From Lama glama (lineage: Eukaryota): a stretch of 64,000 nucleotides of DNA. Shown here piece after piece: positions 17,261 to 61,473 of the stretch; position 1 is the first letter of the stretch; each line of letters opens with the position of its first letter. The stretch spans positions 15,192,001 through 15,256,000 of the forward strand of contig CM052816.1 in NCBI GenBank assembly GCA_028534125.1. The letters are read 5' to 3'. Position numbers and translations under genes: made by a program. The notes under the pieces are model-generated. The model had not been told where the DNA came from. It saw only the letters and a program-made list of their open reading frames with translations, and searched no databases.

Positions 17261-19364
<2,104 letters not shown>

Positions 19365-29819: not shown

Positions 29820-31023
29820 ATGGTAAGTGTATGTTCTTGGGGCCGAATAGGGTCTACTCGGGAAACCTCAGGGGCAGCAGGGGCCTCCTTAACCTCCCCC
29901 GTCTTCCTAGGCGCCTGTGCCCTACCTGCTGCTGCTGCTGCCACTGCTGCGCGTGTCTGCGGACGAACTGGAACCCTGCCAACTGGACGAAGAAGATTTC
30001 CGCTGCGTCTGCAACTTCACGGATCCGGAGCCTGACTGGTCCAGCGCCTTGCAGTGTACGGTTGCCGTCGAGGTGGAGATCCGTGGAGGCGGCCGCAGCC
30101 TGGAACAGTTTCTAAAGAAAGCCAACGCCGACCCGGAGCAGTATGCTCACATGGTCAGGGCTCTGCGATTGCGGCGGCTCACGGTGGGCGCTGCACAGGT
30201 TCCCTCTCAGCTTCTGGTCGCCGTCCTGCATGTGCTCGGGTATTCACGCCTAAAGGAACTGACGCTGGAGGACCTGGAGGTAACCAGCCTGCTGCCGCCG
30301 CCGCCTGTGAAAGACCCTGGGCCAGCACTCTCTACCCTCAGAATCCATAACGTGTCCTGGGCAACAGGAGGTGCGTGGCTCGGCAAACTGCAGCAGTGGC
30401 TCAAGCCGGGCCTCAGGGTACTGAACATTGCGCTAACACATCCGCTTGCTTTCGCCTGCGCACAGCTCCGCACCTTCCCGACCCTTACCACCCTAGACCT
30501 GTCTGACAATCCTGGACTGAGCGAGCGCGGGCTGACTACGGCTCTCTGTCCTCACAAGTTCCCGGCCCTCCAGGATCTAGCGCTACGCAACGCGGGGATG
30601 GAGACGCCCAGCGGAGTGTGCGCAGCGCTGGCGGCGGCGGGTGTGCAACCGCACCGTCTGGACCTCAGTCACAACTCGCTGCGCGCCGCCGCCTCAGGCG
30701 ATCCCAGGTGTGTCTGGCCCCGCACACTGAGCTCTCTCAATTTGTCGTTCGCTGGGCTGGAGCAAGTGCCTAAAGGACTGCCGCCCAAACTCAGCGTGCT
30801 TGATCTCAGCTGCAACAGGCTGAACAGAGCGCCACGGCCAGACGAACTGCCAGAGGTGAGTAACCTGACACTGGATGGGAATCCCTTTCTGGACCCTGGA
30901 GCCCTCAAGCACCAAGAAGACCCGACGCTCTCTGGGGTGGTCCCAGCCTGTGCGCGTTCCGCCTTGACCGTGGGCGTGTCTGGAACTCTGGCGCTGCTTC
31001 AAGGAGCCCGGGGCTATGCCTGA
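29820..31023 (+). CDS. CD14: Monocyte differentiation antigen CD14 (LRR, GPI-anchored LPS co-receptor), 371 aa
   Basis: ATG 29820-29822 is immediately followed by an 88-nt GT-AG intron (29823-29910); exon 2 is 29911-31023. Signal peptide, EPCQLDEEDFRCVCNF, LRRs (LTTLDLSDN, LDLSHNSL) and a hydrophobic GPI tail. ATTAAA at 31121-31126. Confidence 0.98.
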
Positions 31024-34996: not shown

Positions 34997-36920
34997 TGCC
35001 ATTTTATCATTTTTAAGTGTACTGTACAGTGGCATTAATTACATTCACAATATTGTGCAACCATCACTACAATTTCCAAATTTTTTCATCATCCCAAACA
35101 GAAACTCTGTACCCCTTGAGCAAATACTCTCCAATCCCCTCCCCCTAGAGCCTGTGAAAGTGTAATCTACTTGCTGTCTCTGTACATTTGCCTATTCTAC
35201 ATATTTAATTTAAGTGGGATCATACAATATTTGTTTTTTTGTGTCTGGCTTATTTCACTTAGCGTAATGTTTTCAAGGTTCGTCTATGTTATAGCATGTG
35301 TCAGTACTTCATTGCTATTTATGGCTGTATAGCACTCCATTGTGTGTATAAACTACATTTTGTTCATTCATTCATCTGTTGGTGGAAACTTTTTGGCTAC
35401 TATGAATGATGCTGCAATGAACATTTTGGTACACAAATTTGTTTACATACAGTTTTTCAATTTTTTTGCATATATACCCAGGTAGATTGCTGGATCATAC
35501 GGTAATTATATGTTTAACCTTTGGAGGAACTGCCAAACTGTTTTCCACACTGACTGTACCATATTACATTCCCATCAGCAATGTATGAGAGTTCTTATTT
35601 GTTAACATTCTCAGCAACCAGTTTTATTTTTTCTTCTTATTAGAGCCATACCAGTGGATGTGAAGTGGTACCTCATTATGCTTTTGATTTGCATTTATTT
35701 TTAAAAACTTTATTTTCCTTCCAGTTTCATTTAGATATAATTGACATACAGTACTGCATTTGCGGGGAGATTAGGTTTTGTTTGTTTATTTTAATGGAAG
35801 CACTGAGGATTGAACCCAGGACCCATGCCTGTTAGGCACACATTCCACCACTGAGCCATACCCTCCCCTACATTTCTTTAATTATGGATGATTTTGAGCA
35901 TCTTTTCACATGCTTGTTGGTCATTTGTATAGCTTCTTTGGAGAACTGTCTATTCACATTTTTTGCCTAGTTTTTGATTGTTGTCTTTTTGCATTTCACC
36001 AATATATAATGATAATGAGCATTTTTTCATGTACTGTGTATATCTTCTTTGTAGAAATGGCTATTCAAGTCTTTTCCCCATTTTTTAACTTGTGTTGTCT
36101 TTTTGTTCCTGAGTTGTAGGAACTCTCTATATATCCTGGATGCTAGATCATTATCATATATAGTTTGCAAACATTTTCTCCCATTTTGTATGTTGTATTT
36201 TCATCTTTTTGATAACATCTTTTGATGCACAAAAGTTTTCAGTTTTGATGAAATCCAGTTTATCATGTTTTCTTTTCTTGCACTTGCTTTTGGTGTCATA
36301 TCTAAGAATAAATTGCCAGATTATAGGTCATGAGGATTAACTTCTGTATTTTAATTCTAAGAGTTTTATACTTTTAGCTCTTAGATTTAGGAAACTGACC
36401 CATTTAAGTTAATTCTTATATATGGTCTGAAATAAGGGTCCAACTTCATTCATCTGTATTTGGGTATCCAAGTGTCTCAGTGCCATTTGTTAAAAAGATC
36501 AGTCTTTCCTACAGGGGGAGGGTATAGCTCAAGTGTTAGAGCACATGCTTAGCATGGATGAGGTCCTGGGTTCAATCCCCAATACCTCCTCTAAGAATAA
36601 ATAAATAAAGGTAATTACCTTCTCCAGATAAAAAAAAAAATAAATCAGTCTTTCCTCATTGAATGTTCCTGACATCCTTGTCAAATTAGCTGCCCATAGA
36701 GTCATGGGTTTATTTCTGGACTCTCACTTCTCTCCCACTGATCTCTGTTCGTTCTTATGCTAGTATCACAATGTCTTTTTTTTTTTTCACAATGTCTTGA
36801 TTACAGTTGCTTCACAGTAAGTTTTGAAATCCAAAAGTGTGAGTCCTTCAATTTTGTTCCTCTTTTTTAAGACTGTTTTGACTATTCAGCATCTGTTGAA
36901 ATCCATAAGAACTTTAGAAT
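34997..36920 (-). mobile_element. L1 3' region (antisense) with two nested SINEs (about 35762-35868 minus; 36513-36643 plus, TSD atcagtctttcct)
   Basis: L1 antisense motifs (ttaagtgtactgtacagtggc, ggaactgccaaactgttttcc, cttttggtgtcatatctaaga) and SINE A/B boxes. Confidence 0.8.
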
Positions 36921-37432
36921 GGGTAATGATAGCTGAGAGCAAAGGAAGGAACAAATAGGTTATGCAAAGAGGGAAATCCAATATTACACACTTCAGAAGA
37001 GGCTCAGAGAACAAGATGCTATCTTTAGTCCATTTATACCAGATATCTGAAGGTGAAGCCGTATAATCCTGAGAACACTTTTGCTTTTGGAACCTGACAA
37101 GAATCTGAGTGGCTTTGCCCTGGGAGACATTTTGATCATAAAATATGATGATGAACTGAATTAATTACTCTTATTTTTCACGCAACATCTACACAATGAG
37201 ATATCACACTGGCATTGTTGGTAAGACTATAATATCAAAATTGGTTGTCAAATGTATGGGAAAACACAAGCATCCTATGCTTGCCCCATACTGATTCCTC
37301 CAAATGTCAGCTGTATGCATCTTGTTACTATTGCTCTGCCTGTTCTATAAGTGCTATACCAGATGTAGATGATCAGACAAGTGTGATACTTTTGACTAAA
37401 AGGGATCCTTGGTGAAAAACCTGAGAGAGGCT

Positions 37433-39590: not shown

Positions 39591-39954
39591 TTAAAAGCGT
39601 GATTTTCTTTTATAAATATATACTGAAATAGCTATGATTAAAATGTAAGGTGTCTGGGATTTACTTTAAAAGAATCCGCTAAGGGTGGAGAGGGGAACAG
39701 AAGAAATAAGACTGACTGTAAGTTGATAATTGCTGAAGCTGACTGCTTGGAGATTCATTAAATTACTCTCTCCACAGTTATATTTGTTTGACATTTTTCA
39801 TAAGAGGAAAAAAGAAAAATCCCATGCAATGTTCTGACTTACTCAGAAAAGGGGACTGTCACCTCCTTTGATAAATTATTATTTAGAGGCCCCACCCAGA
39901 GCCCTCAGCTCAAGGAGATGAATTATTGAGGGGAATTTGAGCAGCACAGTAGCC

Positions 39955-42900
39955 ATGGAGTGCGGAGAGGTGGTGAGCACAGGGGCTGGTTGGGGCCAGG
40001 ACAGCTCAGCCCCCTCAGGCCTCACTGACAACCCCCAGGCCAGGCTGATCGTGGTGGTGGAAGTAGATCAAGGGAGAAGATCGGGTGAGAAGTCCCCACC
40101 CAGTCATTCAGAGGCAGTACAGCCTGGGAGAGCCTCTTGGGAGAGGGGAAGGGTGAGGCCATTTCATGTGAGGAACTGAGGCAAAGGTTGAGGGCAGGAC
40201 TCATGAGTCCTGGGACTTCGGTTTCCCCCAGAAGAGTTGATATGAAGTCCACCTTTCTCAGGACCTGAGGAGACCTGTTGCCGCACACTCCTCCTGGAGG
40301 GGCCTCAGAGCATCTGCCTGCTTCAGCGTGGGACTCAGGTAGAGATGGGATGGGAAGGGATGAGAAGTGGGTGAAGGCAGGGGGAGGTGGGAGTGACACT
40401 GTTTCCTGTCCACAGGAACAATGCATCACTTTTGACAGAGTCCTGGGTTCTGACGCTGCTCAGGTAGGGGGTCTGATAGGGCGATGGGAGGAGGGTGGGT
40501 GCTGGGTGCTTCCTGAGCCCTTTCCTCAGCGCAGGCTGAGTCAGGGCACCTGAAACAGGGGGCTGTGCCTGTGTCTCCCTGCAGGAGGCAGAGCAGGAGC
40601 TGCTAGTCCGAGCCCAGTCGACGCTGGGCTGGGTGGGCCGAGGGTACAGTGTGGCCCTGCTGCTTCGGGGTCGGGAAACAGAGGCACCACGGCTCGTGCC
40701 TCAGGTGAGTCCCAGATGAGGCACCAGGCACAGCTGTCATGAGGCTCAGGTGTTGCCTCCTTTCCAGGAGACCTTCCGATACTTTCCCCTCCCCACCCTG
40801 GCTGGACTAGGTGCCCCTTCTTGGGGTTCCTACAGCATCCTGTGGTTTTGCCATAGTCAATCTACGAGCTATTGAGAGATCAGGGAAAGTAGGAGGCTGG
40901 GGTCCATGAGGTCAGGGAGGGGTGGTGTGCAAAGATCAAATATCCAGGGAGGTGTAATTCTCACTGTTCTTAGTAATACTAATAATGACAACATACTTGA
41001 AAGTTTTGTTTTTGGGCTACATGAAAATGCCCCCAAACTAAAATAGTTGCCTCAGAAACTTGTTGTAGGTCCCTGCCTGGGCCAACAGCAAGTCCCACTG
41101 AAAACATCTGCTCACTTGTCTGGCTCGCTGTGAACCAAGAGGGCTGGGGCTATTTCTGTCCTGGCCACCATGGCCATAGCACCCAGCACACGGCCAGGCA
41201 CAGACTTCAGCCTCAGGAAATGAGGAAGAACAGATTAATCCTTTCTCAATTCCCACTGAACCCCTTTCTCCACTTTAGCTGCTGCAGATGCTGTTTGAGG
41301 AAGCTCTGCCCCTCAGGGGGTCTGATGCTGTGCTTAGTACTCTTAGCCTGGTGCAGGTGAGGCCCTGGGGGAGGGGACACCTGGGGAGCCGAGGCCATAG
41401 TGATGCTGCAAAAGAGCCTGAGGCTTGCGGGCAGCCTGAAGAGAGTGGGTCTAGCCCCACTCTGCTGCTCATCAGCATCGGCTTGCCCTGCTGGGGTCTC
41501 CTTTTTCCTGCCTGAAATGGCTGAATTTTGGTGCCCTGCTTGGCCCACAGGGGCCCAGTGGGAGGATCATGTGAACCAAAGGTTGAGAAAGGTTCAGATT
41601 GTAACAGATGTTGTGCTTGTGTGATCTCAGCTCAGCCCCAGTGGGAGGATCCAGGACCTGCTTGCTCCAGGAGCAGAGAACCTGTCGGTGCTGGATGTGG
41701 CCCCTCTGGGCTTGTGAGTGTCCAGAGCCCAAAGGCGTCTGAGGGTGCTTGTCTTAAGGCAGGGCTGACACCCCCAAACCAAGCCATCAGGCTTCTCCCC
41801 ATTGCCACCCCAGAGGAGTTCTGAGCATGGGGTCATGCTTACAGGGCCTGGGTGTGCTCCCAGGACTCCCTCTCTCCATTTTCCTTTCATCCTCATGTCT
41901 CATCCCTCTCCTTCTTCTCACCCCACCCACGTACACCTTTTCAACTTAGTCATTACCATCCTGGGTGATTTGAGCATCTCACTAAGCAGAACTTCGGCTT
42001 CTTTATCTGTAAAATGGGAGCAATCTCAACTACCCTATTTCCCTCCTAGGGCAAATGATAGGAGAAAATAAAAAAGATCATGAACATGAGAGGCTTTTAG
42101 GGGATATACTGAGCTTGGAGACTTGGGGGTGATTCTTATATGCTCTTGGGACTCCCATGGGCTCCCCATGCAGAGATTCTGGGGGGGCTGGACAGAACCC
42201 TCGTGCTTAGGAGCTCAGCCTCCTCTTCCTCCAGGGTGGTGGTAAATGCCACTGAAGTGGAAGTATCTGACTCAAGAGCTGCCTCAGAGCTGTACTTGCA
42301 GGCTGCAGGTGGTGAAGGCAGGTAAGGACAGGAGGGCACCTGTCACCTCAACCCACTCCCTAGCCATTTGGCTTGATCCTATGCTCTCCTCTACAGGGCC
42401 TGCTCTCTGCTCACCATCACCATGTCCTGCCCAGGGCCTGACCCTCCTGAGAGGCCTGGTACCCAGGGCATGTGGCAAGGAGCCTTGCGGATCCTGCAGC
42501 TCCCAGGAGTCCTGTAAGTCTGATGGAGACTTTTAACAGCTTTGGGGAAGGGTGGGGATGACTGAAATATGGATGTAGAGGCCCTAGGAAGCATCAGAGT
42601 TTCCTTTTCTCTGACATACTGAAGGATTTGCTCCCTTTGCTCATTTCTTGCAATGAACTCCCTCAGCTTTTCTGTAACTCCTATAGTTTTGAGGGATAGT
42701 ATTGTCAGATCCTAGTTGACAGTTTCTTTTCTTTGAGCACTTTAACTATATTATCTCACTGCCTTCTGGCCTCCACCATTTTTGATGAGAAATTGTTTTT
42801 TAATCTTATTAAAGATCTCTTGTACAAAACAAGTTGCTTCTCTTTTGTTTTCAAGATTCTCTCTTTGACTTTGGCTTTTAATAATTTGATTATAATCTGT

Positions 42901-45900
42901 CTTGGTGTGAATCTCTTTGAGTTTATCCTCCTCGGAATTTGTTGAGCTTCTTAGATGTGTAGATTCATGTTTTTCATAAATTTGGGGGAATTTTTGAACA
43001 TTATTTCTTCAAATATTCTTCTCCATCCACCAGTGGACATCTCCTTTCTTCTTCCCTCCCTCCCTCTGGCAGAGACTGTCCCCTGTTGCAGGTGTTGGCT
43101 GGTGAGGTTGTTGGTGAGGAGGTGGAGGGCTCTCTGCCCTGGATTGTCTCATGGCTCCTGGAAGGAAACAACTACAGTGGCCTTCTTCTTCGCCTGGACA
43201 CTCAAGGTGGCCTGGGGGAAGGTGCGGGGTTCTTTGGGAAGCTCTGGGATCTGGCCTTCGGCCCCCGCCACCTCTCACCCAACCAGCTGCAGCCCCCACC
43301 CTAGCCAGCCCAGAGAGTCTCATCCATCTGGGAGGGCCAGGATTAGAAAGGTCCCAGGGTTGCCAGGCTGCCGAAGTCTGGAGAAGCAAGGACAATAGCA
43401 AAAGCAAACTCTCACCCTTCCAGAGGCCTTCAACAGTTTACCAAGCATTTTTACACTAATGAATACCTTTGATTATCACAACCCCATGAGACAGATTGAA
43501 TTTACAGGTGAGGGAAGGGAGGCAGGCTTAATTTATAGATGAGGAAAGCGAGGATCAGAGAAGAGAAGGTACTTGCCGATTTTCACACACCCATTAAAAG
43601 ATCAAGCCTCTGTGAAATGATATGACATCAGAGATTTGGAGGTCAAGCAGAGGGTAGAGATCAAACAAGAATGTCCATGAATTGATAATTGTTGAAGCTG
43701 GGTAATAAGTAGATGGATTTCCTATACTATGTATATGTTTGAAGTTTTCCATTAATAAAAGAGAAAAAAAGGTCTGGCCCTCTGTCTTCAAAATCAACAG
43801 ATACACATTCATTTAGCCAACATTTTTTCTGACCTCACCCTGTGCCAGGCACTGCGGAATGAGGAAATAAGCTGGGGCAGTTCATATTCTTAAGGACAAA
43901 GCAGGGAGGGAAAGAAGTATATTTATGTCCAGGCCAGTTTGGGATAACAATCAAGGGTAGAGGTTTTAATGTCTGACCAATATGGGCTTGAGTTTCAGCT
44001 GTGCCACTCACCAGGAAGTTGCTTGACCTCTCTGAGCTTCAGTTTCCTCACTTAGAAAATGCTGGGGGAGGCAGGGTAAATCAGAGCTGCTGCCTCATTG
44101 GAGTGTTGTCTGGATAAGAAGAGGCAATTCATGAAAAGCCTGAGCATAGTACCATCAACCACGTGTAAAAGCCTGCTAAGTGTTAGCTATTTTCATGAAT
44201 AGTCCTATTAATACAAATTAAAAATATTATAGGCAGTGTGCTTTGGAGTTCAGAGGAAGGAGTGATTCACTCTGTGTCTCCTCTTACTAGGCAGTTCCCA
44301 GAGCTTGCTCCAGGCTGCACTGCTGGGGGCCGCGAGAAGGAGGATGAAGGTGAAACAGGTGAGGCCCACCCTGTGGGATGCAGTAGAAGAGGCCCGGGCC
44401 CGCCGGGCTGGCCTGAAGAGCCTGCGTTCAGGCCTCCTTGGGGACACTCTGACAGAGACTGGGCTCAGCCAGCTGGGCAGGGCACTGCAGGAGCTGCAGG
44501 TGAGCAAGGTGAGGCCTGAAGGTGCCTGGGCCAGCAATGGCTGCAGCCCACCCTGAACCCTCTCTCCACAGGTGGTAAAAGCCTGGAGCCAGCGCTTGGG
44601 AAGCTGGATGCTCAAAGAGGTCAAAGCTGAGGCTGCAGGACTCTCAGAACCATGGGTATGTCTTCTCATCCAACCTCTCTGGAGTCTCATTGATGTCTGC
44701 CTTCTTCCCTTCTGTTCACAGAGCACTGTGAGGGGGCCCTTCCTTCATTTATTAATTTATTGATTCCAAAACATTTACTGACCACTCACTATGTGCAGGG
44801 CACAGTGTCATGTGGGGGCTGGGAAATCCCTATCCAATTGGAGTTTACTAACCTCTGGAGAAAAACATTTAACACCATGATCGGTGCTCTGAAGGCCTTA
44901 TTTGAAGGGTTCTATGGGGGCATCTAAGTTAGTCTTGGCATGAGAGGGAAGGAAGACTACATGGATGAAGTTGATCATCTAGCAAAGATGAATGAAGAAC
45001 ATTCTAGGCAGAGAAAATAACAGGCAAAGTCTCAGAGGTAAGCGAATGTTTGATCTCTTTACAAGACTGCAAGCAGCTCAGTTTGCTGGAGAATAGAGTT
45101 TAAGGAAGAGAGCCAAGAGTGAAGGATTGGAGAGTGAAGCACGGGCCTGGTCATACAGGGCTTTGTCAATCTGTTGAGATGTTTGAACTTTGTCTCAAAG
45201 GTCAAGGGGAAGCCATAGAATTCTTTTAAACAGGGAAGACAACATTGCTCCTGCTTTTCAGGTGAGCAAACTGAAGTTCAGAGAAGCGATCCGAGTGTCC
45301 TGGGATAATTAAAGGCAGCAGAGGTGCAAACACATCCAAATCCAGACTCAGTGCGGAGCTTTCATCCCCTTAGGATGCGTGGCTTCTCTTGTGCAGAAGG
45401 GGGCGCTGTCCTCCATGATTTGGCACAAGGTGGCTGGAAGGTTGCCCTGTCCAGCTTATTCTTGTCCTTCCCTTTTCATAATTACTCATAACTTCTTTTT
45501 ACAGACCTGGGCCTTGGGAATTAGGCCTGTAAACTCCCATTTACAGCTGGCCAGTGCTTAGTACTTTGGGTGCCTTATCTCATTTCATGCTCTCCACGAC
45601 TTTTATCCAGCTCCATTTTATGGATGAGAAAATGGAGACTCAAAAGACTAGCCAACTGCTGGAGGTCATACAGCTAAGAAAAGGAGGGTGGGGACACTGA
45701 TCTGTCTGATTTCAAAATCCATGCTGTTCTGGGAGGAAAGGTATGGAATTCTCACTCATGTTTTCTCAGCAGGTGATAGATTCAACAGCAAGCCACAGCC
45801 CAGGCCTCCAGGAGGAGCCTCAAGGTGAGTGTGGGGGTTGCAGTGAAGCTGGGGGTCTTCTCCACCTTTGGTGTGCTTAACTGCAGTTTCCTCCAGTGGC

Positions 45901-46192
45901 AGGAAGAACAGCATCTATAGAATCTGGGCTCCACGAAAAGCATCCTCCTAGGGGCTCTGAGGAACAGGTACCATCTTGTGTACTCCCTAACAACTGGAAG
46001 CTGTTGGGGGAGTGAAGAGTCACAGAGCCCAGATAATGTTTCCTGTTTACGCTGCCCTAACATCAGGGAGAAATACTGAGCTTCTGGCAAAAAGGGATCA
46101 GAAGGGCTACTAAGAGGGGGAGGGTATAGCTCAGTGGTAGAGTGTGTGTTTTGCATGCCTGAAGTCCTGGGTTCAATCCTCAGTACCTCCAT

Positions 46193-46241
<49 letters not shown>

Positions 46242-47958
46242 ACCCACCTAATTACTACCCCCCTAAAAATTAAAAAAAAGAAAAGGACTACTAAGGGCAG
46301 GGCATGGGAAAGGGCTGTTTTCCTACTGGGTTGGGTAAGAGGTATGGGACCCCTAGGGCCTCCATGGTTCCCACTGGCAGAGTCAATACTTGTCTTCCCC
46401 CATGGCCTCTGAGCCTCTGTCCAGGCCACAAGCTCTTCCAGGCCAGTTAGTCTTCTGGAAGTAATTCTAGGAGCAGCCCTGTTAATGGACTTCTGGTGGA
46501 AAAGTTGGGCCCTGTGTCCCAAGGCAATGTGCTCACATGGGCTTCTGGCTGAGCCCAGACTGATGCCCCCTAGGCCCAGCAGGCCCCGGATGTGGCCCTG
46601 CAGTTCTTCCTGGCTCAGGCCCGGAGGCAGAGACTGCGAGAACAGCATGAAATCTGGATCCAAGAGGAAATGAAGCATTTGGAACAGGAAAAGGAGGAAG
46701 TGGCAGGTGACCAGGTCAAAGGCCTGGGGGCTAGAGAAGAGGTAAGGACGGTGGATGGGACTTGAGGCTCATTCTAATCTGGCCAGGCAATGTGCTAGGG
46801 GCCAGGGTCTTGTGTCAAGTTGGGCCCTACCCTCTCCCTGGCCCTCCCAGGTTTGTGGGGGATAGACAACGCAGTGCTAAGTGCTGTGGCGGGGGACTAG
46901 TGGCTCATGGCAACAAAGAAGTGCACCTGACCCATGCTGGAGTGGATCAGAGATGGCATCTAAGCTGAGACTTAAAGGACAAACAAATCAGCCAGAACAA
47001 TTCATTAGACCATGAGCTCCACATGGTCAAGTTGTCCTCATCACATACAGGCACTCAGTAAATACAACTTGTTTAAACAATAAAACTTGTGTGCACAGAG
47101 GTGGCGGGGAGGAGGGAGACATGTTTCTAAGAGAAGAGAATTCCGTATGAGCAAAGGTCCAAAGGGAAGCAGTGGCAATACAGGTTCTGGGTACTGCGTA
47201 TTGCCTATGTGGCTGGAGGCTGGCAGGTGCGTAGTTGGAGCAAGGCTAAAGAGACAGTGTGTGCCTCTGGATTTGGACTTTACCCCAAGGGTGACAGTAA
47301 ACTGTTGAAAGGCATATGTCATCTGAGTTCTGTCCCTCACTAGCCACGTGAATTTGATCGTTAGGTCACCTATCTGATCCACTGTTTCCAAGTCAGTAAA
47401 ATGTCAACTACCTCAAGGTTGTCATTGGATAAAATGAGATAATAACATAAAGTATGTAGAACAGAGCCTGGCACACAGGTGGTAATCAACAAAGAGGATG
47501 TATTATCACTGAAGCCCTCCAAGGAGAGGCACAGATGGCACTGGGAGCAGGCAGCACTGAGACTCCAGCTGGAGGCCCTTCAGGCAGAACGGGATGCTGC
47601 GGAGCAGGACCTGGTAGCGCTCTATGACCTGCACGTGCAGGCTGCCCGAGCCCGGACATGCCATGAGCTGCAGGTTAGTGTGGACAGAGGGCAGGCCTTG
47701 GGCTGGTTCCAAGACTGGTTGACTGATGGGCATCTCTGACTCTGGGCACAGGTATTCCGAGCCTGGCGGGGACTGTGGGAGGAACGGGCTGTGACCACAG
47801 AGCATCACTACCGCAGCTTGCTGGCTGGAGTCCTGCAAGACACCATCAGCCTGGCTACACAGAACCAGGAGCTCCAAGCCCAGAACCAACAACTTTGGCA
47901 GACTAGGCTGGAAGCAGTCATACTGGATTCCAGCCTTGAGGAGAAACCTGGTAATTAG
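39955..47958 (+). CDS. Uncharacterised degenerate kinesin-motor-like plus coiled-coil protein, about 16 exons, about 607 aa (possible ortholog of mouse E230025N22Rik)
   Basis: Proposed exons 39955-40084, 40262-40338, 40416-40463, 40585-40704, 41279-41356, 41631-41713, 42235-42321, 42397-42513, 43073-43206, 44291-44499, 44572-44655, 45773-45824, 45897-45967, 46574-46741, ~47515-47673, 47752-47958. All introns are GT-AG, phases match, there is no internal stop, and the start has Kozak context gccATGg. Kinesin-like segments: RLIVVVEV, ITFDRVLGSDAAQ, GYSVALLLRG, IQDLL, ATEVEVSD, LLTITM, LLEGNN. Confidence 0.8.
46116..46283 (+). mobile_element. tRNA-derived SINE (Vic-1-like) with (TAAA)n, intronic
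   Basis: gggggagggtatagctcagtggtagag...gtcctgggttcaatcc, with imperfect TSD gg(g/a)ctactaag. Confidence 0.85.
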
Positions 47959-48290
47959 GAATCCTTCAGGGGCAGTTTCCTCTTTCTTAAAGATCTTAGA
48001 AGGGAGAGGAAGTTGGGACACAACAGCCAAGCTAACCTTCATTATGGATTAATAACACCACCACTAACCAGGTCTCACTGTACCAGTCCTTGCTAAGCGC
48101 CTGATATCCAATAATTGATTTAGCCTTTTCTACTACCCTACATAGTAGTAGGTATCATATGACCCCCATTTCAGAGATAATGCAACTAAAGCTAGGAGAG
48201 GTTGTGTAACTGTCCAAGGACAGTCAGCCAATAAGTGATGGAGCCAGAATTCAAACTCAAGCCTGGCTGGCTATTGTTCTACACTGTAGA

Positions 48291-48480: not shown

Positions 48481-48946
48481 TTTTTGTTTTCTTTTTTCTT
48501 TACCAGCTTACCAGGTATTCTACCATGGGAGCAGGGCCAGATACTTCTCTGGCCATGAGAAGAGATAGCAGGTAGGGGTATCAGTGAGGGAACCAGAGAT
48601 GAGAATCAAAATCACCTTCCTTTAGAGTTCTCTAGCCTACAGTCTACAGTTTGCCTTGCTGGGCCCAGCACCTTCTATTCCCACAGCTCCCTCCAGGGCC
48701 CAAGTTTTGTGCTTCAGAGAAAGTCCCAAAATTCTGTGACAGAGTTTCAGCGCCATGGAGTTCTCAGAGGAAATAATGCTGCTGGCAAGAGCTGGGAGAA
48801 AACAGATTTTTTCTCGGTCTATGAGTCACCCCAGGATTAAGATACTCAGGGCATCAGAGGAAGGAAATTATGCTTGAGAGGAGATACACAACAGAGAAGA
48901 CACAGGACAATCAGGGCTGATTGTAGGAAACTACACCCCAGAACAC

Positions 48947-49868: not shown

Positions 49869-50843
49869 CTAGCGGCTGCCATAGTACAGGCGCACAGCCA
49901 GGCCGATGAGCAGCGTGGCTAGGAAGAAGGCAGCTGTGAGCTGCAGCCGCAGCAGGGCTGCTGAGAGCACAGCATTGACCACTAGTGAGCAGGACACAAC
50001 GAAGAGGCGCGTGATGCTGCTGCCGTGCTTCATGACGGCTGACATGAGCAGTCCATTGAGTGCTTGGCTCAGCACGACGAGCGCTGCCCAACCTGAGAAA
50101 CCCTCCAGGAGGCCTGGGCCGGGGCCGCCACCTGCATGCAGACCTAGGTTCAGGAGCACACCAAAAGTGTAGAGGAAGAGGTTCTGAAGGGCCAGGGGCA
50201 GCCGCTGTCGTTTCATGAGCAGCTCTGTGTACACGGAAGACAAGCCTGAGATGAGGCAGTACAGGATGAGAAGCAGCAGTCCCAGTGGAGTGATATGCAG
50301 GGGCATGGGGCCCGCAGCAGCCGCTGAAGGGGGCCCAGAAAGCGTGTTCCCAGGGTCCCGGAGGCCACCAGCTGCATAGCAGGCTCCCGCTGCCATCAGC
50401 AGCAGCAGTGCTAAGCCCTGGCGTGCGGAGAGGCGGTGTCGGAGGCAGAGGCAGTAGAACAGGGCTGTGCTTCCGATCTTGAGATTGCTCAGCACCTGGT
50501 AGGTGCTGGGGTCCATGTAACGTTGAAGATAGATCACCAGGTTGTTGTTGGCACCATAGAGCAGGGCTGATAGTGCGAAGGGGGCGGCTTGGCGCCAGGG
50601 TGGGGTCCCCTGGGGCCATGCTTGCCAGCCCACCAGGAGAGAGAAGGCGCACAGTAGCAGCTTCGTCAGTTCAGTCAGCAGTACGGCCGAGGAAGGCCGG
50701 AAGGGCACGCGGCCATCTACATGGCACAGCGCCAGCAATGGGGCATGGGCCCCGTACATCGCAGTGGACAGGAGTAGCATCAGGGTCCAGCGGGCCTGCC
50801 TGGGACGGCCCAGGCCTGGCATACCCCCGTCCTCTACACTCAT
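49869..50843 (-). CDS. SLC35A4: Solute carrier family 35 member A4 (nucleotide-sugar transporter family), single coding exon, 324 aa
   Basis: MSVEDGGMPGLGRPRQARWTLMLLLST...ALLYGANNNLVIYLQRYMDPSTYQVLSNLKIGSTA...RLYYGSR*, multi-pass hydrophobic. The ORF track extends to a weak upstream in-frame ATG at 50906. Confidence 0.96.
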   Translation of the reverse strand: MSVEDGGMPGLGRPRQARWTLMLLLSTAMYGAHAPLLALCHVDGRVPFRPSSAVLLTELTKLLLCAFSLLVGWQAWPQGTPPWRQAAPFALSALLYGANNNLVIYLQRYMDPSTYQVLSNLKIGSTALFYCLCLRHRLSARQGLALLLLMAAGACYAAGGLRDPGNTLSGPPSAAAAGPMPLHITPLGLLLLILYCLISGLSSVYTELLMKRQRLPLALQNLFLYTFGVLLNLGLHAGGGPGPGLLEGFSGWAALVVLSQALNGLLMSAVMKHGSSITRLFVVSCSLVVNAVLSAALLRLQLTAAFFLATLLIGLAVRLYYGSR

Positions 50844-51272
50844 GCCCAAACTAGACCTTGGGTGGCCTCTGTAGCTGGCAAGGGGACAACGGGGACTGTG
50901 ATGCATCTGGGGAAAATCAAGTTATGGAGCTGGCTCCCAGGGGTGAGGAGCTGTGGTACATTGCCAGAGAGATACTGAGAGTCAGAGTCAGCTGCAAACC
51001 CCACAGCAAGGGCTGGAAGAGGAAAGGATTGGTGGCCCTAGAAGCCAGTCTTGGGGCCAGTCCCGTGGGGTTACGGAGGGAAGGAGTCCAGGGTGCTGGC
51101 TGATGAGCCACTGTACAGCCTCTGCAGGAAGGGAAGTGAGGATGAAGGCAGCAGGAAAGCTGGAGTGAGCAAATGGGTGAAAGCCCGGGAGGCCAGGTGC
51201 GGCATCTGTGGCTGGAAGGCTTCCGCCTGCAGGCCCCAGCTGTTCATCCTGCCTCCCTCATGGGATCCAGAG

Positions 51273-53470
51273 CTAGTCGGGCCCCTTGCGCAGTGATCGA
51301 AGATAGTCCCTCAAGGTCTTCTCTACATTGGGCACAGCATATGCCTGCGCTGCATATATGCCAGTGCAGGTGCCCACGGCAAAGCCCAATACTGCCGATG
51401 CCCTCAGTTTGGCCACCACGTAACCGGCCAGGAAGCCCTTGAGGAATGGGGAGGACAAGAGCGAGCCATCCTGTGGATGAAAATGCAGGAGGAAACTCAG
51501 CTAGGCTCTCCCCTTCTCTACTCAGGAGCTACTTAAGGGGCTTAGCACATCCCACCACCTGCTCCTCCTTACTCAGGAAGCTGTAGTATGCTCTCCAAAG
51601 ATTTTCTCAAGATTCTGGAGGCAGAAAAAGAACCTAGAAGTTCTGATCACACAATGCCAGAACCCTGTGGTTAGAAGGCTCTAACCACAGAATCCTACTG
51701 AGAAAGAGGTCCCTGAAGAATCCGACCCCTGCCTGCTTCCCGTTTCATTTCCTAGCACACTCCCCCACTGCTGCAGCCAAACTGAACTGCTTCACCATCC
51801 TACCTCCCACCACAAGGGATTTGCCTATGCTGTTCCATCTGCCTGAAATGTTCCCTCTTCTCCCTCATCACCTAGTTAACTCCTAAGATTTAAGATCCCA
51901 GTTCCGGGGAGGGTATAGCTCAGTGGTAGAGTGCATGCTTAGCATGCATGGGGTCCTGGGTTCAAAACAAAAAAAAATCCTTCCTAGAATTGATATAATA
52001 TGGTATTATGCCCATTTTACAGACTAGGAAACTGAGGCAGAGAGATTAAGTAACTTATGTATAGTCACATTATTAATAGAGAAGCTAGGATTCAACACTA
52101 AGCACTCTGGCTCCAGAAATTGTTCATTTAATCACTGTGCTATGTGACCTCTTGGTACACATGGATCTCAGGAAAGAGTGATCTGGGATGCAGACTGAGA
52201 TCTGAGAGTTACCAATTGAAAAAGAAAAAAACCAAGTTCAAATGCCATTTTCTCAGGGAAACTTTCCTGGGAGGAAGAGGAGGGGTCACAGAGAACAGAC
52301 CCTTAATAACCAACCATTTGCTGAATAAGTCTCTACCACCCATTTGAAAGCATACTGGCCATGAAGCTTAAGGGGTGGGGGGCAGGCACAGCCTTACCTG
52401 GCCCACACCACTGCTGACTTCGTCTTCCACACGCTGCTGCAGGCGCTCAAGCTGGTTCTTGAGAAATGCCAGGTCCTTAAGCTTGGGGAGAGAATCCTAG
52501 GACAAATGAGAGGCTGGCTCCAGAAGGCTGATCCAGCCCCATCCCTACTCAAGTCTATCAGAGACTGGGGGTAGGGAGGAGTGAGTCTGAAAAATTTCCT
52601 ATAAAGCCTACCTGAGATAACAGTGATTGATAAAGGTAGAAAGGGATTGAAAATTAAAGAATTCATATGGGGGCCAGGGAAGGGGTGACAGATGGGATCT
52701 GCACTGGTAACTTACAACAACCCTTACAAGAAATTTTGTATAGCAAGCAGTGTATAGGGAAGGCAGGAGGGACAGCTAGGGAACTTTCAGTTAGGTTTAT
52801 CAGGCAAGCAGTAGTGACTATAAGCTACCTGAAAGTTGTGGATAGCCTCCCGCAGCCTAACACAGGGACTGCAAGTAAATGTGTGGGTGGTGCTGAACTT
52901 CAAGACTAATGATTAGTAATAGCCTGAGGCAGTTCCCTGGACAATCTGGGGGTAAACGTGATTTCTGCCTAGGCTTCTTCCCCTTTCCCCTCAAGGCCAT
53001 CCCAAATTGAATGTGTGACTGGATGAGCTGGGGTTTGGTGGGTGGAGGGGAGAAGGAAGGTGGCTGTCTGCAGGAGTGTGGGTAAATGAACTGACTGATT
53101 TTGGCCCCACGTAAGTATGAAATTAGTGTGTGCGAATGCGGATGTGAGTGTCCGTGTGGACCGGAAACTCCTTGTCTCTGGAAGGGAGTTTTGGGGGCCA
53201 GGGAATAGGGCAAAGTTGGAGTGTATGCAAGTTAACTAGTGACGGTGCCAGGTGGGGACACCTGGGGGATCTCCGGCTACGCTTGCCTCGCGTAGTGCTC
53301 CGACTCTCCACTATTGAGGTAGTCGACAGGAGTAATACCTGCCCTCAGGAGGAACAAGGGGCAACCCCACCCACGAGTCGCTCCAGTTGTCGCCTCTCCC
53401 CAGGACTCAGAAGCTGTGAAGAGCACCAACTACAGAGAACCCCACGTTCACTCACCTTGTCATCCGCCAT
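51273..53470 (-). CDS. SLC35A4: SLC35A4 upstream-ORF microprotein (SLC35A4-MP / alt-SLC35A4), 3 exons, 103 aa
   Basis: Exons 53456-53470, 52398-52496, 51273-51470: MADDK-DSLPKLKDLAFLKNQLERLQQRVEDEVSSGVGQ-DGSLLSSPFLKGFLAGYVVAKLRASAVLGFAVGTCTGIYAAQAYAVPNVEKTLRDYLRSLRKGPD*. Confidence 0.93.
51906..51977 (+). mobile_element. Truncated tRNA-derived SINE
   Basis: ggggagggtatagctcagtggtagagtgcatgcttagcatgcatggggtcctgggttcaa followed directly by polyA. Confidence 0.8.
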
Positions 53471-54085
53471 TTTCCCCGCCGAACTTGTGGCGCAGGCGCA
53501 GCACCGCCTCCCTCCTGGCAAGGGCTACCGCCATCTTTACTGAGGGCAGAGGCACTTCCGGGGCATTTTTGGAAAGGGTGGAGGCGCGTTCCTGGCAGTC
53601 TCCTTTTAGCAGATGACGTGACCTCTCTCGTTGGGACCCAGGCTGCGTGCGCGCGCGCGTTTACGACGTAAACGCAATGATCACACCGTGTGCGTGTGCG
53701 TGTGCGTGTGCGTGTGCGTGTGCGTGTTCGCTCTGCGCAAGTTCGCCTGGCGAATATTCCGCTGCTTGATGAGCTCACGGTTAGGCTGTGATGACAGCGT
53801 GTGTGCCGCGGTTCTTGCGCCTCCCCCAGAGCCTCGGACGGAAACGCGAAGCCACTTGGGATCCGAACGCCTGTTTACACGCGCCACCTCTCGGTGGGAG
53901 GCGCTGCTCAGGCGGGTCTTTTTCAGCCTCCGGGACCCGGCCCCTGCCCCGCCCCGTAATTGTGCGGCGCCCGCTGGCCCGGCCGATTCCGGCGCAGAGA
54001 GGCTGGACTTGTAGGCGCAGCCGCTCCGGAGTCGAGCTGGGCTGAGTGCGGGCCGGCGAAGGCCGGCGGGGACGCGACCAAGGCT
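53471..54085. promoter_or_regulatory. SLC35A4 / APBB3 bidirectional CpG-island promoter
   Basis: Divergent first exons, YY1-like CCGCCATTTT/CCGCCATCTT, ETS CACTTCCGG about 53553, CRE-like TGACGT about 53614 and a GC box about 53946. Confidence 0.75.
53687..53727. repeat. (CGTGTG)n microsatellite, about 6.8 copies
   Basis: Read directly; alternating purine-pyrimidine. Confidence 0.9.
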
Positions 54086-57000
54086 ATGCTGGGCAAGGAT
54101 TACATGCTGGCCATCATTCTGGTCAACTGCGATGGTGTGCACGGAGGGTCCCGTTGGGAAGATCTGGAGCTGAGGGGTGGGGGAACGAGGGAGCGCGAAA
54201 CGCTACCTCAGGCTCAGAGACAGGGAGGGGGTAGGTACGTATCGGGGTGAGGGCCAGGGGACAGATGAACCCTGGTCTTTGCACTGCAATATGCAGGATT
54301 GAAAGCCTGAATTCTCAGACTGGACCTTCAGCCCAAAGGTTGTCCCTTTTGGTTTGGAGGAAGGGTTTTGACAAAGTGTTATTGTAAGTTCGCATGTATC
54401 TCCTCCCTCTCCAATCCCGTGTTCCGGTAGATGATTTGTGGGGGGACCAGAGTCTGGAGCGGGAGCCAGGCCTGCCCCCTGGCTGGAGGAAGATCCGTGA
54501 TGCTGCAGGTACTTACTATTGGCATGTACCCAGCGGTAGCACCCAGTGGCAGCGCCCAACCTGGGAGCCAGGAGATGCAGAGGACCCAGGCACGGTAGGT
54601 GGAGTTTGAGGAGGGGGCCTGAGCTCATATGCGGACAAAAGCCTGCTGCCACACTGACCTAACCCCCTCTCTACAGAGGACGGAGGGAATTTGGGGACTT
54701 CGGCCCCCCAAGGGGAGATCCTTTTCCAGCCTGGAGAACTCATTGGACCGGAGGTAACAGGGATAGACCAGGCAAAAATGAAAGGCTTGGTGTTCTGTGG
54801 CACTCAAAGATGCAGCTGGACCCACAGTCTGCTTTCCAGCCCAGGTTCTGGACTCTATCCCATGTTTAGGACTCTGTTCTGTGTTCTTGGCTCTGTTCCA
54901 TAATCTTGACTCTCCTAGTGTTTTGAGTTTTGTTTCTTGTTTCATGCTGTTTTTTGTTAAAAATTGTTTTACATATTCTGGGTCCTGAACCTATCATATT
55001 CTAGACCTTGGACACTACCCTAGGTTCTGTTCATGGAGGTTCCTGTCCTGTGTTCTATGGTTTTCTTGTCCTCATTTGGGGCTCTGGTCCACATTTTGGA
55101 CCCTGTTCCATGTTTATAAGTTTTATTCTATGTCCTGGCTCTTAAATTTCTCCCCAAATTCAAAGCCATGCTCTAGGTTACATTTGTCCTGGACCTTGTC
55201 CCACTCTGATGTTACATTTGGGACACTATATTCTGGGTTTTATGCCATGTCTTGTGCATATCAAGTAGTCTAGTCCTCACTAGTGTCCCTTCTGTAGGAA
55301 GCGTGGTCCTCTTACCAGCTCTGCTCTATTCCAGTAACTCTCTGTCCTGGTATGGTGAAGACTCCTACATCCAGAGAGTGGAGCCAGGGGCTAAGGTAGT
55401 GACGGGTCAGAGGGCATTGGGGAGGGTCCCAAAGGAAAAGTCAGGAGGGGGTTTGGGCTGAGAAGAGGTGATGGAGGGTGAAGGGAGGAGGTATCAGAGG
55501 GTTTTTATGTGTGGAACCTGTGGGAGCTCCCACCCTACTTCACCTCTACTCACTCAGGGTCCTCCTGTCCTTTCTTCTAACCTGTCAGTGCTTTGCAGTC
55601 CGGTCTCTGGGCTGGGTAGAGGTACCTGAAGAGGATCTGGTACCAGGGAAGAGCAGTATCGCAGTCAATAACTGCATCCAGCAGCTGGCCCAGACCCGCA
55701 GTCAGAGCCAGCCCCCAGATGGTGCCTGGGGCGAGGTGAGCTGGCTGGCCCTTCAAAGAGTGCAGCCCAGCATCCAGCAGAGGTGGTTGTCCCTGAATTG
55801 TCTGTTCCTCATGGCAACTGCCTTCATCTGAGCTCCAGGTTGGCCTCTCCTTGGCAGGGCCAGAACATGCTGATGATCCTGAAGAAGGATGCCATGAGCC
55901 TGGTGAATCCCCTGGACCGCAGTCTGATCCACTGCCAGCCTCTGGTGCACATCCGTGTATGGGGTGTGGGCAGCTCCAAGGGCCGGTGAGGACCCCTGCA
56001 TCCCTCGAAGTGAGAGTTGCTCCTCCCTCCCCCTTACAGGCTGTGATCCCCACTGATGCTAATCCCCTGTACTTGAACCCCTGGACACAGATCCTCTGAC
56101 ATGGACCCGAGCTCTGCCTCACCTGCCTGGTCCAGCTCTGGTTGGGGAGGGTGGGCCTGGCTCAGCAGGGACGGATGGGGGAGAGCCTGAGAGGCTGGGC
56201 TGATTCTCTCCTGTGCTCCCACATGCTTCTGGAACAGTGACAGGTGAGTGACAGCCAGGTCCCTGTAGCCCCAGCCCTGCCCTTCCTGTTCCATCCTTGC
56301 CATACCCCTGACTTTCCAGCCTTCTGCAGGCACTCTAGCTAGGCCTTTGCCCCTACCTAGCTTTCCCAGCTGGATCTCTGCCCCTGCCCTAGCCCCATCT
56401 CTGACCTTGCCAGGGACTTCGCTTTTGTGGCGGGTGACAAAGACAGCTGTATGCTCAAGTGCCATGTGTTTCGCTGTGACGTCCCTGCCAAGGCCATTGC
56501 CAGTGCCCTACATGGGCTCTGTGCCCAGGTAAGGGCCAGGAGTGGGGCAGGGAATGTGGGTATGTAGCTGGGTCTGAAGCTGCTAAGATGGTTGTGGCAG
56601 GGTGGTGTTGGCTCCCTGATCTCACTTCTTCCTCCCTGCACCTCATGCTGGCTACGTTGTGTTTCAGATCTTGTCAGAGCGAGTAGGAGTCAGTGGTGAT
56701 TCCCCTTGCTGCTCACTAGACCCCATCACCCCTGAAGACCTGCCTCGGCAAGGTATGGGGAGTGGGGTGCCATGTTGCAGCAACAGGCTGCTTTGGTGAA
56801 AAATTGGCGGCTCATGGTTATTCAGTGTTTCTTTGGAGACAGAGGACTTCAGAGGTGTCCTTGTCCTAGGGATCCCAAACCCTAAATTGGAGGAGCATCC
56901 ATGACCTTTTTTCTACTAGCTCCAGTTCCCTCAGAAAGGTGGAGAAAGGGGTCATTGAGAGAGTACCCCGGCCAGCATGGTGTATATATTTCAGTGGAGC

Positions 57001-61376: not shown

Positions 61377-61473
61377 GTTTTTTTTTTTTTAATGGAGGTT
61401 CTGGGATTGAACCCAGTACCTCATGCATGCATGCTAAGCATGCACTCTACCACTGAACTATACCCTCACCCCC
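61377..61473 (-). mobile_element. tRNA-derived SINE (Vic-1-like)
   Basis: Poly-T followed by the reverse complement of the SINE body. Confidence 0.8.

Follow-up and report, generated by a model that had tools for sequence, protein, structure and literature searches.

In a 64,000-nucleotide stretch of the llama genome (Lama glama, assembly GCA_028534125.1, contig CM052816.1, positions 15,192,001 to 15,256,000; hereafter the window, to whose first letter all coordinates refer), we describe a forward-strand gene whose product has an N-terminal domain of about 290 residues that is predicted to have a kinesin motor fold, and in which the three nucleotide-binding motifs of kinesins are degenerate. 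The domain derives from a kinesin motor, as the Pfam matches of its distant relatives and the predicted fold indicate, and sequence comparison identifies the gene as the camelid counterpart of E230025N22Rik, a mouse-lineage gene that is catalogued as uncharacterized. We consider it fairly probable that the protein is a dimeric, non-catalytic kinesin-fold scaffold or adaptor, because the vertebrate family to which it belongs is as a whole a lineage of orphan pseudo-kinesins, its microtubule face appears to be lost, its replacement loops are the most conserved and it probably homodimerises through its tail.

Ortholog mapping, splice-site reading and a scripted translation place 16 coding exons on the + strand at 39955-47958, which give a coding sequence of 1824 nucleotides (nt) and a protein of 607 amino acids (aa) with zero internal stops (Table 1). 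All 15 introns are GT-AG, and all 30 splice sites are intact in the llama genome. The product is 100% identical over 479 aa to the alpaca protein P0001 ('uncharacterized protein LOC102528876 [Vicugna pacos]') and 96% identical (580/606) to the full-length dromedary model P0300. Only one copy of the gene is present, since every one of the 14 exon-level matches that P0300 has in the 2.35-Gb assembly falls at this locus. The alpaca model, which is of RefSeq type, begins at a methionine in exon 5 and is without exons 1-4; the dromedary model has these exons, and in the llama window they are open and spliceable (39955-40704).

An earlier reading of the letters of the window, made without database searches (the sequence-only reading), had placed a putative catalytically dead pseudo-kinesin at 40585-42513. 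Both its coordinates and its exon numbering are exact in the spliced gene model, in which exon 4 opens with base 40585 and exon 8 closes with base 42513. It had aligned three degenerate strings by eye with the P-loop, switch I and switch II of kinesins, and the strings occur in the spliced protein as described: a pseudo-P-loop at residues 105-125 (exon 4), which ends in ...GYSVALLLRGRETEAPRLVPQ / RGRETEAPRLVPQ; GGEGRACS at residues 204-211, across the exon 7/8 junction; and ILQLPGVL at residues 240-247, at the end of exon 8. In a MAFFT alignment they fall under FAYGQTGTGKTYTM, NEHSSRSHAIF and LVDLAGSERQ, respectively, of KIF3- and KIF2-type motors from the llama's own genome, and a sub-threshold Pfam match and an hhalign comparison give an identical register for the N-terminal half, pseudo-P-loop included. 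The register of the three strings against real kinesins is better founded than one set by eye.

The canonical motifs are absent from the protein. A motif scan of the 607 residues returned zero G-x4-GK[ST], zero SS[RK]S[HT] and zero D-x-x-G-x-E, and a six-frame scan of the whole 64 kilobases (kb) found no overlooked exon inside the gene that could supply a kinesin-type P-loop or DLAGSE. The only Walker-like matches on the + strand, at 37243-37266 and 48769-48792, both lie outside the coding span, and a lone SSKST is located in intron 9.

This loss is shared by orthologs. With a 67-aa exon translation (44275-44475) as the query, 159 proteins were matched at E≤0.001 among 1809 candidates, with alpaca P0001 as the best at 100% identity, and none of the 120 listed placental orthologs has a Walker A motif within its first 400 residues. 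The β3 motif is present in 92 of the 120, all of which then carry the short RGRETEAP-type loop, 39 of them exactly as RGRETEAPRLVP. For a wider view we aligned 20 family members (15 non-placental and 5 placental) with KIF3-type and KIF2-type open frames of the llama genome, using MAFFT. In all five placentals the P-loop is replaced by RG(R/W)ETEA, and about 17 residues are deleted ahead of α2; the substitute loop in mammals is eight residues long. A formal Walker A occurs in two of the 15 non-placentals, a shark (GTYASGKS) and a cod (GIHRTGKS); the eel and the caecilian have GxxxxGK followed by E or D, and the P-loop is broken in the other 11. SSRSH is found in none of the 20 family members, of which the teleosts retain SSRCS and the others just R/x-C-S. 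At switch II, DLxG is kept in 5 of the 15 non-placentals and the glutamate is in place in none; placentals have LQLPG, and DxxGxE is absent from all 20. At the level of sequence, no placental ortholog examined retains any of the three nucleotide-binding motifs, and for this reason 'catalytically dead pseudo-kinesin' is the right reading at that level. The switches and the microtubule loop are absent across the family and would therefore have gone already in the common ancestor of the sampled species, and the alignment indicates that the P-loop decayed later, lineage by lineage.

The same comparison bears on whether the domain could have kept ATP or ADP binding as a switch while lacking kinesin-type hydrolysis. 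The formal Walker A of shark and cod, and the GxxxxGK of eel and caecilian, would fit residual binding of this kind; set against the shortened placental loop, the complete lack of GK[ST] in the 120 placental proteins and the lack of SSRSH and DxxGxE in the aligned family, we regard it as very improbable. The shark (P0150/P0272) and cod (P0259) proteins, which have kept G-x4-GKS despite the loss of switch I and of the glutamate of switch II, offer a natural test of whether nucleotide can be bound but not hydrolysed, and the fish orthologs together form a graded series of P-loop decay that is biochemically testable.

Because Pfam sees no kinesin domain in the camelid and mouse-lineage proteins, we argue homology through intermediates. 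A profile of 87 placental sequences, searched against 1.84 billion representative proteins, matched 234 proteins at E≤0.001, 123 at ≤1e-10 and 40 at ≤1e-30. These include cartilaginous fish (basking shark, elephant shark (a chimaera) and stingray), ray-finned fish (eels, cod and pipefish), lobe-finned fish (coelacanth and lungfish), amphibians (caecilian, axolotl and frogs), reptiles and birds (turtles, lizards, gecko and burrowing owl) and a non-placental mammal, the marsupial dunnart. The automatic names of these relatives are inconsistent (KIF4A, kinesin-II 85 kDa-like, klp-20, KIF3A, KIF15, klp-19, trichohyalin and uncharacterized). The curated cut-off of the Pfam Kinesin family (PF00225; 29.3 bits) is passed by 14 of 20 distant relatives, with scores of 97.7 bits for the shark, 91.8 for the lungfish, 88.1 for the caecilian and 88.0 for the eel; three of the remaining six match below threshold and three, the marsupial among them, do not match. 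The Kinesin matches of the distant relatives span only profile positions ~24-237 of 327. The shark ortholog matches 119 distinct kinesin sequences in the PDB, best KIF13B (5e-18), KIF1A and KIF4, and in a second stretch its α5-α6-neck region aligns to KIF13B. A kinesin-motor origin of the domain, as the sequence-only reading had proposed, is borne out by these intermediate relatives and by the predicted fold.

The gene fits no one kinesin family better than the others: the shark protein is about equally close to kinesin-3, kinesin-4 and kinesin-8 entries, and structural Z-scores are tied across families. Searches of the ESM Atlas gave leads only. For the N-terminal part, the best score (0.90) was to a cluster with Kinesin in only 11% of its members; for the C-terminal part, an 'inner centromere protein' cluster scored 0.89, and costa, KIF23 and KIF7 clusters scored 0.78-0.80.

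For the predicted fold, AlphaFold2 was run on P0300 with 102 family sequences, canonical kinesins and templates excluded. The model has a mean predicted local distance difference test score (pLDDT) of 82.4 and a predicted template modelling score (pTM) of 0.65, with most 10-residue blocks in residues 28-380 above 90. Against the PDB, Foldseek returned at least 355 matches at E≤0.001, the best being KIF13B (1.8e-18), with template modelling (TM) scores by target of 0.6-0.71; the matches listed are kinesin-family motor structures, except for one map of the central apparatus of the sperm axoneme. When 987 of the Foldseek chains were compared using VIA-align, the best was KIF15 (Z 24.9, root-mean-square deviation (rmsd) 3.4 Å, 271 residues, 17% identity), a match to kinesin motors that speaks against a fold of another kind. 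In total, 342 of the 987 chains reached Z≥8, and the 50 entries shown consist of kinesin motor structures apart from two axoneme maps. The matches cover model residues ~28-320, along which the elements run in the order β1, β2, α1, β3, an 8-residue loop, α2, β4, β5, α3, a 6-residue loop, β6, β7, a 7-residue α4, α5, β8 and α6. C-terminal to the motor-like domain, the model has a helix (322-341/347-383), a low-confidence linker (386-431) and two further helices (436-476 and 485-597).

The predicted protein resembles canonical N-terminal kinesin motors in its fold (Z 22-25 over ~270-290 residues), in the order of its elements, in the N-terminal position of the motor-like domain and in the neck-like helix followed by a coiled coil; the closest of these motors are KIF15, kinesin-1, KIF13B, KLP-6 and OSM-3 by structure, and KIF13B, KIF1A and KIF4 by the sequence of the shark ortholog. 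It differs from them in being without a P-loop, switch I or switch II, and in an L11/α4/L12 region that is 20-25 residues shorter and acidic. In all 20 aligned family members these ~20-25 residues are missing, and the L11-α4-L12-α5 segment is 29-38 residues long with a net charge of -1 to -4, whereas in KIF3 and KIF2 of the same genome it is 56-57 residues long and basic (net +3/+6). In the family alignment L11 and the start of α4 are deleted and the YRDSKLT-type motif is lost; the α5-β8 motif LLxxxLxGN is retained, and L276, G278 and N279 are conserved from fish to mammals. From these sequences, the elements needed to grip microtubules have probably been lost too.

Several animal members of the kinesin superfamily act as scaffolds or regulators with an impaired or absent ATPase, among them KIF26A/B (kinesin-11) and KIF7 / Drosophila Costal2; standard profiles still recognise these as kinesins, and they bind microtubules. 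Unlike them, the proteins of the camelids and the mouse lineage are missed by Pfam Kinesin even at E≤10. An ATP-independent microtubule tether or regulator, as proposed for KIF26 or KIF7, would agree with the predicted kinesin fold and with the retained LLxxxLxGN motif. It is improbable given the deletions and the net negative charge of the face in every family sequence, and even the fish Pfam matches stop at about position 237 of the 327 in the profile. The microtubule tether that the sequence-only reading had offered as one option is disfavoured on the same contrast, of a short, acidic segment in the family with a long, basic one in KIF3 and KIF2.

The tail of the protein suggests how it could pair. 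For two copies of P0300 residues 300-606, the median of the interface score ipSAE was 0.56, compared with 0.00 for the best of three controls; the mark applied is reached by 21 of 30 solved one-chain pairs and by 0 of 23 solved single chains (17 of 29 and 0 of 30, respectively, in eukaryotes). The model runs agree in at least 38% of contacts, the partner pLDDT is at least 57, and the confident contacts run residue to same residue over ~486-593, plus 436-447, as in a parallel, in-register coiled coil. The C-terminal coiled coil therefore probably forms a homodimer, a model that supports binding and does not show it; passing this test may reflect likeness, because coiled coils resemble many solved structures.

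A second way of pairing has been described in yeast, in which the non-catalytic domains of Vik1 and Cik1 pair with the kinesin Kar3 (PMC3384419, PMC4338441). These domains have a kinesin-like fold without a nucleotide site and are joined to a coiled coil. The llama protein shares the kinesin-like fold, as far as prediction goes, the lack of a nucleotide site and the attached coiled coil; its head is N-terminal. With this precedent, with a long conserved coiled coil and with a shark ortholog that retains a kinesin-3/-2-like neck segment, a dead head joined by its coiled coil to a catalytic kinesin, whose microtubule cycle it tunes, is conceivable. Set against it, the head of Vik1 and Cik1 is C-terminal, and these fungal proteins form kinesin-14 heterodimers that keep microtubule binding, whereas the vertebrate protein described here has an N-terminal head, a tail predicted to self-pair in parallel and in register, and a truncated, acidic microtubule face without basic character. 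No candidate partner kinesin was identified, and none adjoins the gene in the window. We judge a partnership of the Vik1 type unlikely. Of the overall reading made from the letters, the dead, non-ATPase kinesin-fold domain stands, the tether is disfavoured, and the comparison with Vik1 and Cik1 holds only as a concept, given the N-terminal head and the self-pairing tail.

The 607-aa product is made up of the N-terminal domain with its kinesin fold, the neck-like helix, a linker that is disordered and, at the C-terminus, a long coiled coil. Under the scaffold or adaptor reading that we favour, the motor-like domain would be unable to bind or hydrolyse ATP in the manner of kinesins and would not dock on microtubules through the canonical face; with neither an ATP cycle nor canonical docking, it would therefore work as a folded, non-catalytic module, paired by the parallel coiled coil of its tail. 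The conserved surfaces, which are the former nucleotide pocket, the exon 9 face and the C-terminal coil, may bind other proteins.

The pattern of conservation bears on these surfaces. Across 45 placental sequences, column conservation is highest, and equal, in exon 4 (the pseudo-P-loop) and exon 9 (the α4-α5 remnant) at 0.90, compared with 0.85-0.88 in exons 5-8 and 10, 0.70 in the linker and 0.64 in exon 1; the structural core with the replacement loops stands at 0.86-0.90, and the termini and linker at 0.64-0.73. No other part of the protein is as well conserved in placentals as the replacement sequences. In addition, placentals and non-placentals have 69 conserved columns in common, among them G105, Y106, D160-L162, G278-N279, W320-D321 and a run in the C-terminal coil.

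Several lines of evidence weigh against the scaffold reading. The direct sequence signal for kinesin in mammals is weak: no Pfam Kinesin match at E≤10 was found for dromedary P0300, Mus spicilegus P0318 or gerbil P0310, and of 87 placental proteins none passes the Pfam cut-off, 14 having sub-threshold Kinesin matches (the best at E 7.1e-4 and 19.1 bits) and 6 sub-threshold Microtub_bd matches. When PF00225 was searched over the whole assembly, it gave 138 exon matches, with 0 in the window. A profile of 20 placental sequences found 0 matches at E≤10 among PDB sequences, and hhalign of the 87 placentals with four kinesins of the llama genome gave the right register over 125 columns at a non-significant E of 0.11 (probability 0.5). 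AlphaFold run from 20 placental sequences returned an unusable model (pLDDT 37.7), and the good model leans on the non-mammalian family members of its alignment. The neck-like helix lies outside the confident contacts of the dimer model. The loss of ATPase and of microtubule binding is putative, being read from the sequence and a predicted model, and the scaffold role is the default for pseudoenzymes, not a demonstrated function.

Four more points on this side would equally fit a gene in decay in mammals, in which the frame is kept by annotation pipelines and short divergence times and a selected function has been lost, at least in some lineages. The predicted isoforms are heterogeneous: exon 7 is joined to exon 9 in 37 of the 120 listed placental proteins and exon 8 is included in 43, 40 being unscorable. 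Identity to the llama protein across placental orders is only 64-81% (chinchilla 71%, Mus spicilegus 64%). No hominoid protein was found among the best 120 of 196 matches to a baboon-ortholog query (E≤1e-10) or in Old World monkey clusters, a search of proteins only and not of genomes. A study of hares (PMC6065068) reports a ratio of non-synonymous to synonymous substitution (dN/dS) above 1 for E230025N22Rik, which is among its outliers. An expression table for a mouse uterine data set also gives low values for the gene. Opposed to decay are the open frame with its 30 intact splice sites, orthologs predicted in well over 150 placental species, conservation patterned by structural core and replacement loops, and a sequence that still yields a confident fold; we hold decay to be as improbable as a microtubule tether. 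Skipping of exon 8 would remove the core strands β6 and β7 and break the fold. Models that skip it are spread over many orders, and the missing exon could be real alternative splicing or a habit of annotation.

Nearly all of the listed placental matches are named 'uncharacterized', and two UniRef entries carry the automatic name 'Kinesin motor domain-containing protein'; a hamster relative is named 'Kinesin, motor domain containing protein'. The Mus spicilegus protein P0318 ('Riken cDNA E230025N22 gene') matches the baboon ortholog at E 9e-115 and is 64% identical to the llama protein, with its motifs degenerate alike, and this full-length similarity, together with the degenerate motifs, places the llama protein in the E230025N22Rik orthologous group. 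The primates among the relatives are macaque, baboon, langur, douc, the New World monkey Saimiri and lemurs; the hominoid absence may reflect either loss or non-annotation in apes and humans. We found no functional literature on the gene, and papers that mention E230025N22Rik do not have it in their titles or abstracts, in a search that lay outside subscription journals and supplements; the 'pseudokinesin' literature that was found concerns a fungal orphan group. That the gene escaped study would be explained by its lack of characterization in the mouse lineage and by its absence among the hominoid proteins searched. The gene is old, dating to jawed vertebrates, and is already catalogued as uncharacterized.

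These observations lead us to a broader proposal, which we advance as possible, with somewhat less than even confidence. The gene would represent a kinesin family that has gone unrecognised in jawed vertebrates and has no place in the standard mammalian KIF list, and in which switch I, the switch II glutamate and the L11/α4 loop were lost before the split of sharks and bony vertebrates. The P-loop would then have eroded stepwise, from a Walker A in shark and cod, through GK followed by D or E in caecilian and eel, to deletion in placentals, while the fold was kept under selection for microtubule-independent binding; a loss in hominoids would be possible. Dead kinesin heads are known in few cases, mostly fungal, protist or plant. 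The family would be a case in which a motor fold has outlasted the loss of its fuel site and its track-binding face by more than 400 million years, a clean natural example of how a motor domain can be turned into a binding module. The function of the gene could be addressed directly by mouse genetics.

Table 1. Coding exons of the pseudo-kinesin gene in the llama window, with the structural elements assigned to them
Feature	Position	Strand	Content
Exon 1	39955..40084	+	ATG; β1 (RLIVVVEV); 91% identical to dromedary P0300 residues 1-47
Exon 2	40262..40338	+	AG/GT, frame maintained
Exon 3	40416..40463	+	EQCITFDRVLGSDAAQ, equivalent to kinesin 'FxFDxVF', strand β2
Exon 4	40585..40704	+	α1, β3 (GYSVALLL), pseudo-P-loop RGRETEAP (~40642-40704), then directly α2
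Exon 5	41279..41356	+	End of α2; β4 LSTLSLVQ
Exon 6	41631..41713	+	LSPSGRIQDLL, equivalent of kinesin 'EIYxExxxDLL'
Exon 7	42235..42321	+	β5, α3; shortened switch I equivalent GGEGR starts at its end (~42308-42321)
Exon 8	42397..42513	+	117 nt, in frame; β6 (ACSLLTITM), β7, pseudo-switch II ILQLPGVL (~42491-42513)
Exon 9	43073..43206	+	Truncated acidic α4-L12-α5 equivalent, β8
Exon 10	44291..44499	+	α6 equivalent (kinesin-fold domain ends ~44373), neck-like helix (VRPTLWDAVEEARARR...); shark ortholog aligns here to KIF13B neck
Exon 11	44572..44655	+	Placed by ortholog mapping
Exon 12	45773..45824	+	Low-confidence linker
Exon 13	45897..45967	+	Linker
Exon 14	46574..46741	+	First long C-terminal helix
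Exon 15	47515..47673	+	Coiled coil; core of predicted parallel in-register homodimer interface
Exon 16	47752..47958	+	Conserved coiled-coil end (FRAWRGLWEE...NQELQAQNQ), TAG stop

The neighbours of the gene were named by eye from their translations. Upstream lies an open frame on the + strand (29911-31023) that we take to be CD14, and downstream a single open frame on the - strand (49869-50921; 350 aa from stop to stop) that is presumably SLC35A4. The order that we assume for the surroundings is DND1-, WDR55-, IK-, NDUFA2- and TMCO6-like pieces, CD14, the pseudo-kinesin gene, SLC35A4 and an APBB3-like WW exon (1-31023 and 49869-54609). Mouse E230025N22Rik presumably lies in the same Cd14 / Slc35a4 neighbourhood.

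Four Rfam tRNA matches of 34-42 bits occur in the window, at 18682-18753 (-), 36518-36590 (+), 46120-46191 (+) and 61393-61467 (-), one of them within the intron that separates exons 13 and 14; all four are probably copies of a tRNA-derived short interspersed element (SINE) and not tRNA genes. Five RNA runs labelled 'reproductive system metagenome' share 0.25-0.40 of the sampled words of 39900-48100 and were not used as evidence. A (TG)n microsatellite lies at ~53690-53730 and is visible as CVCVCV or THTHTH runs in the open frames.

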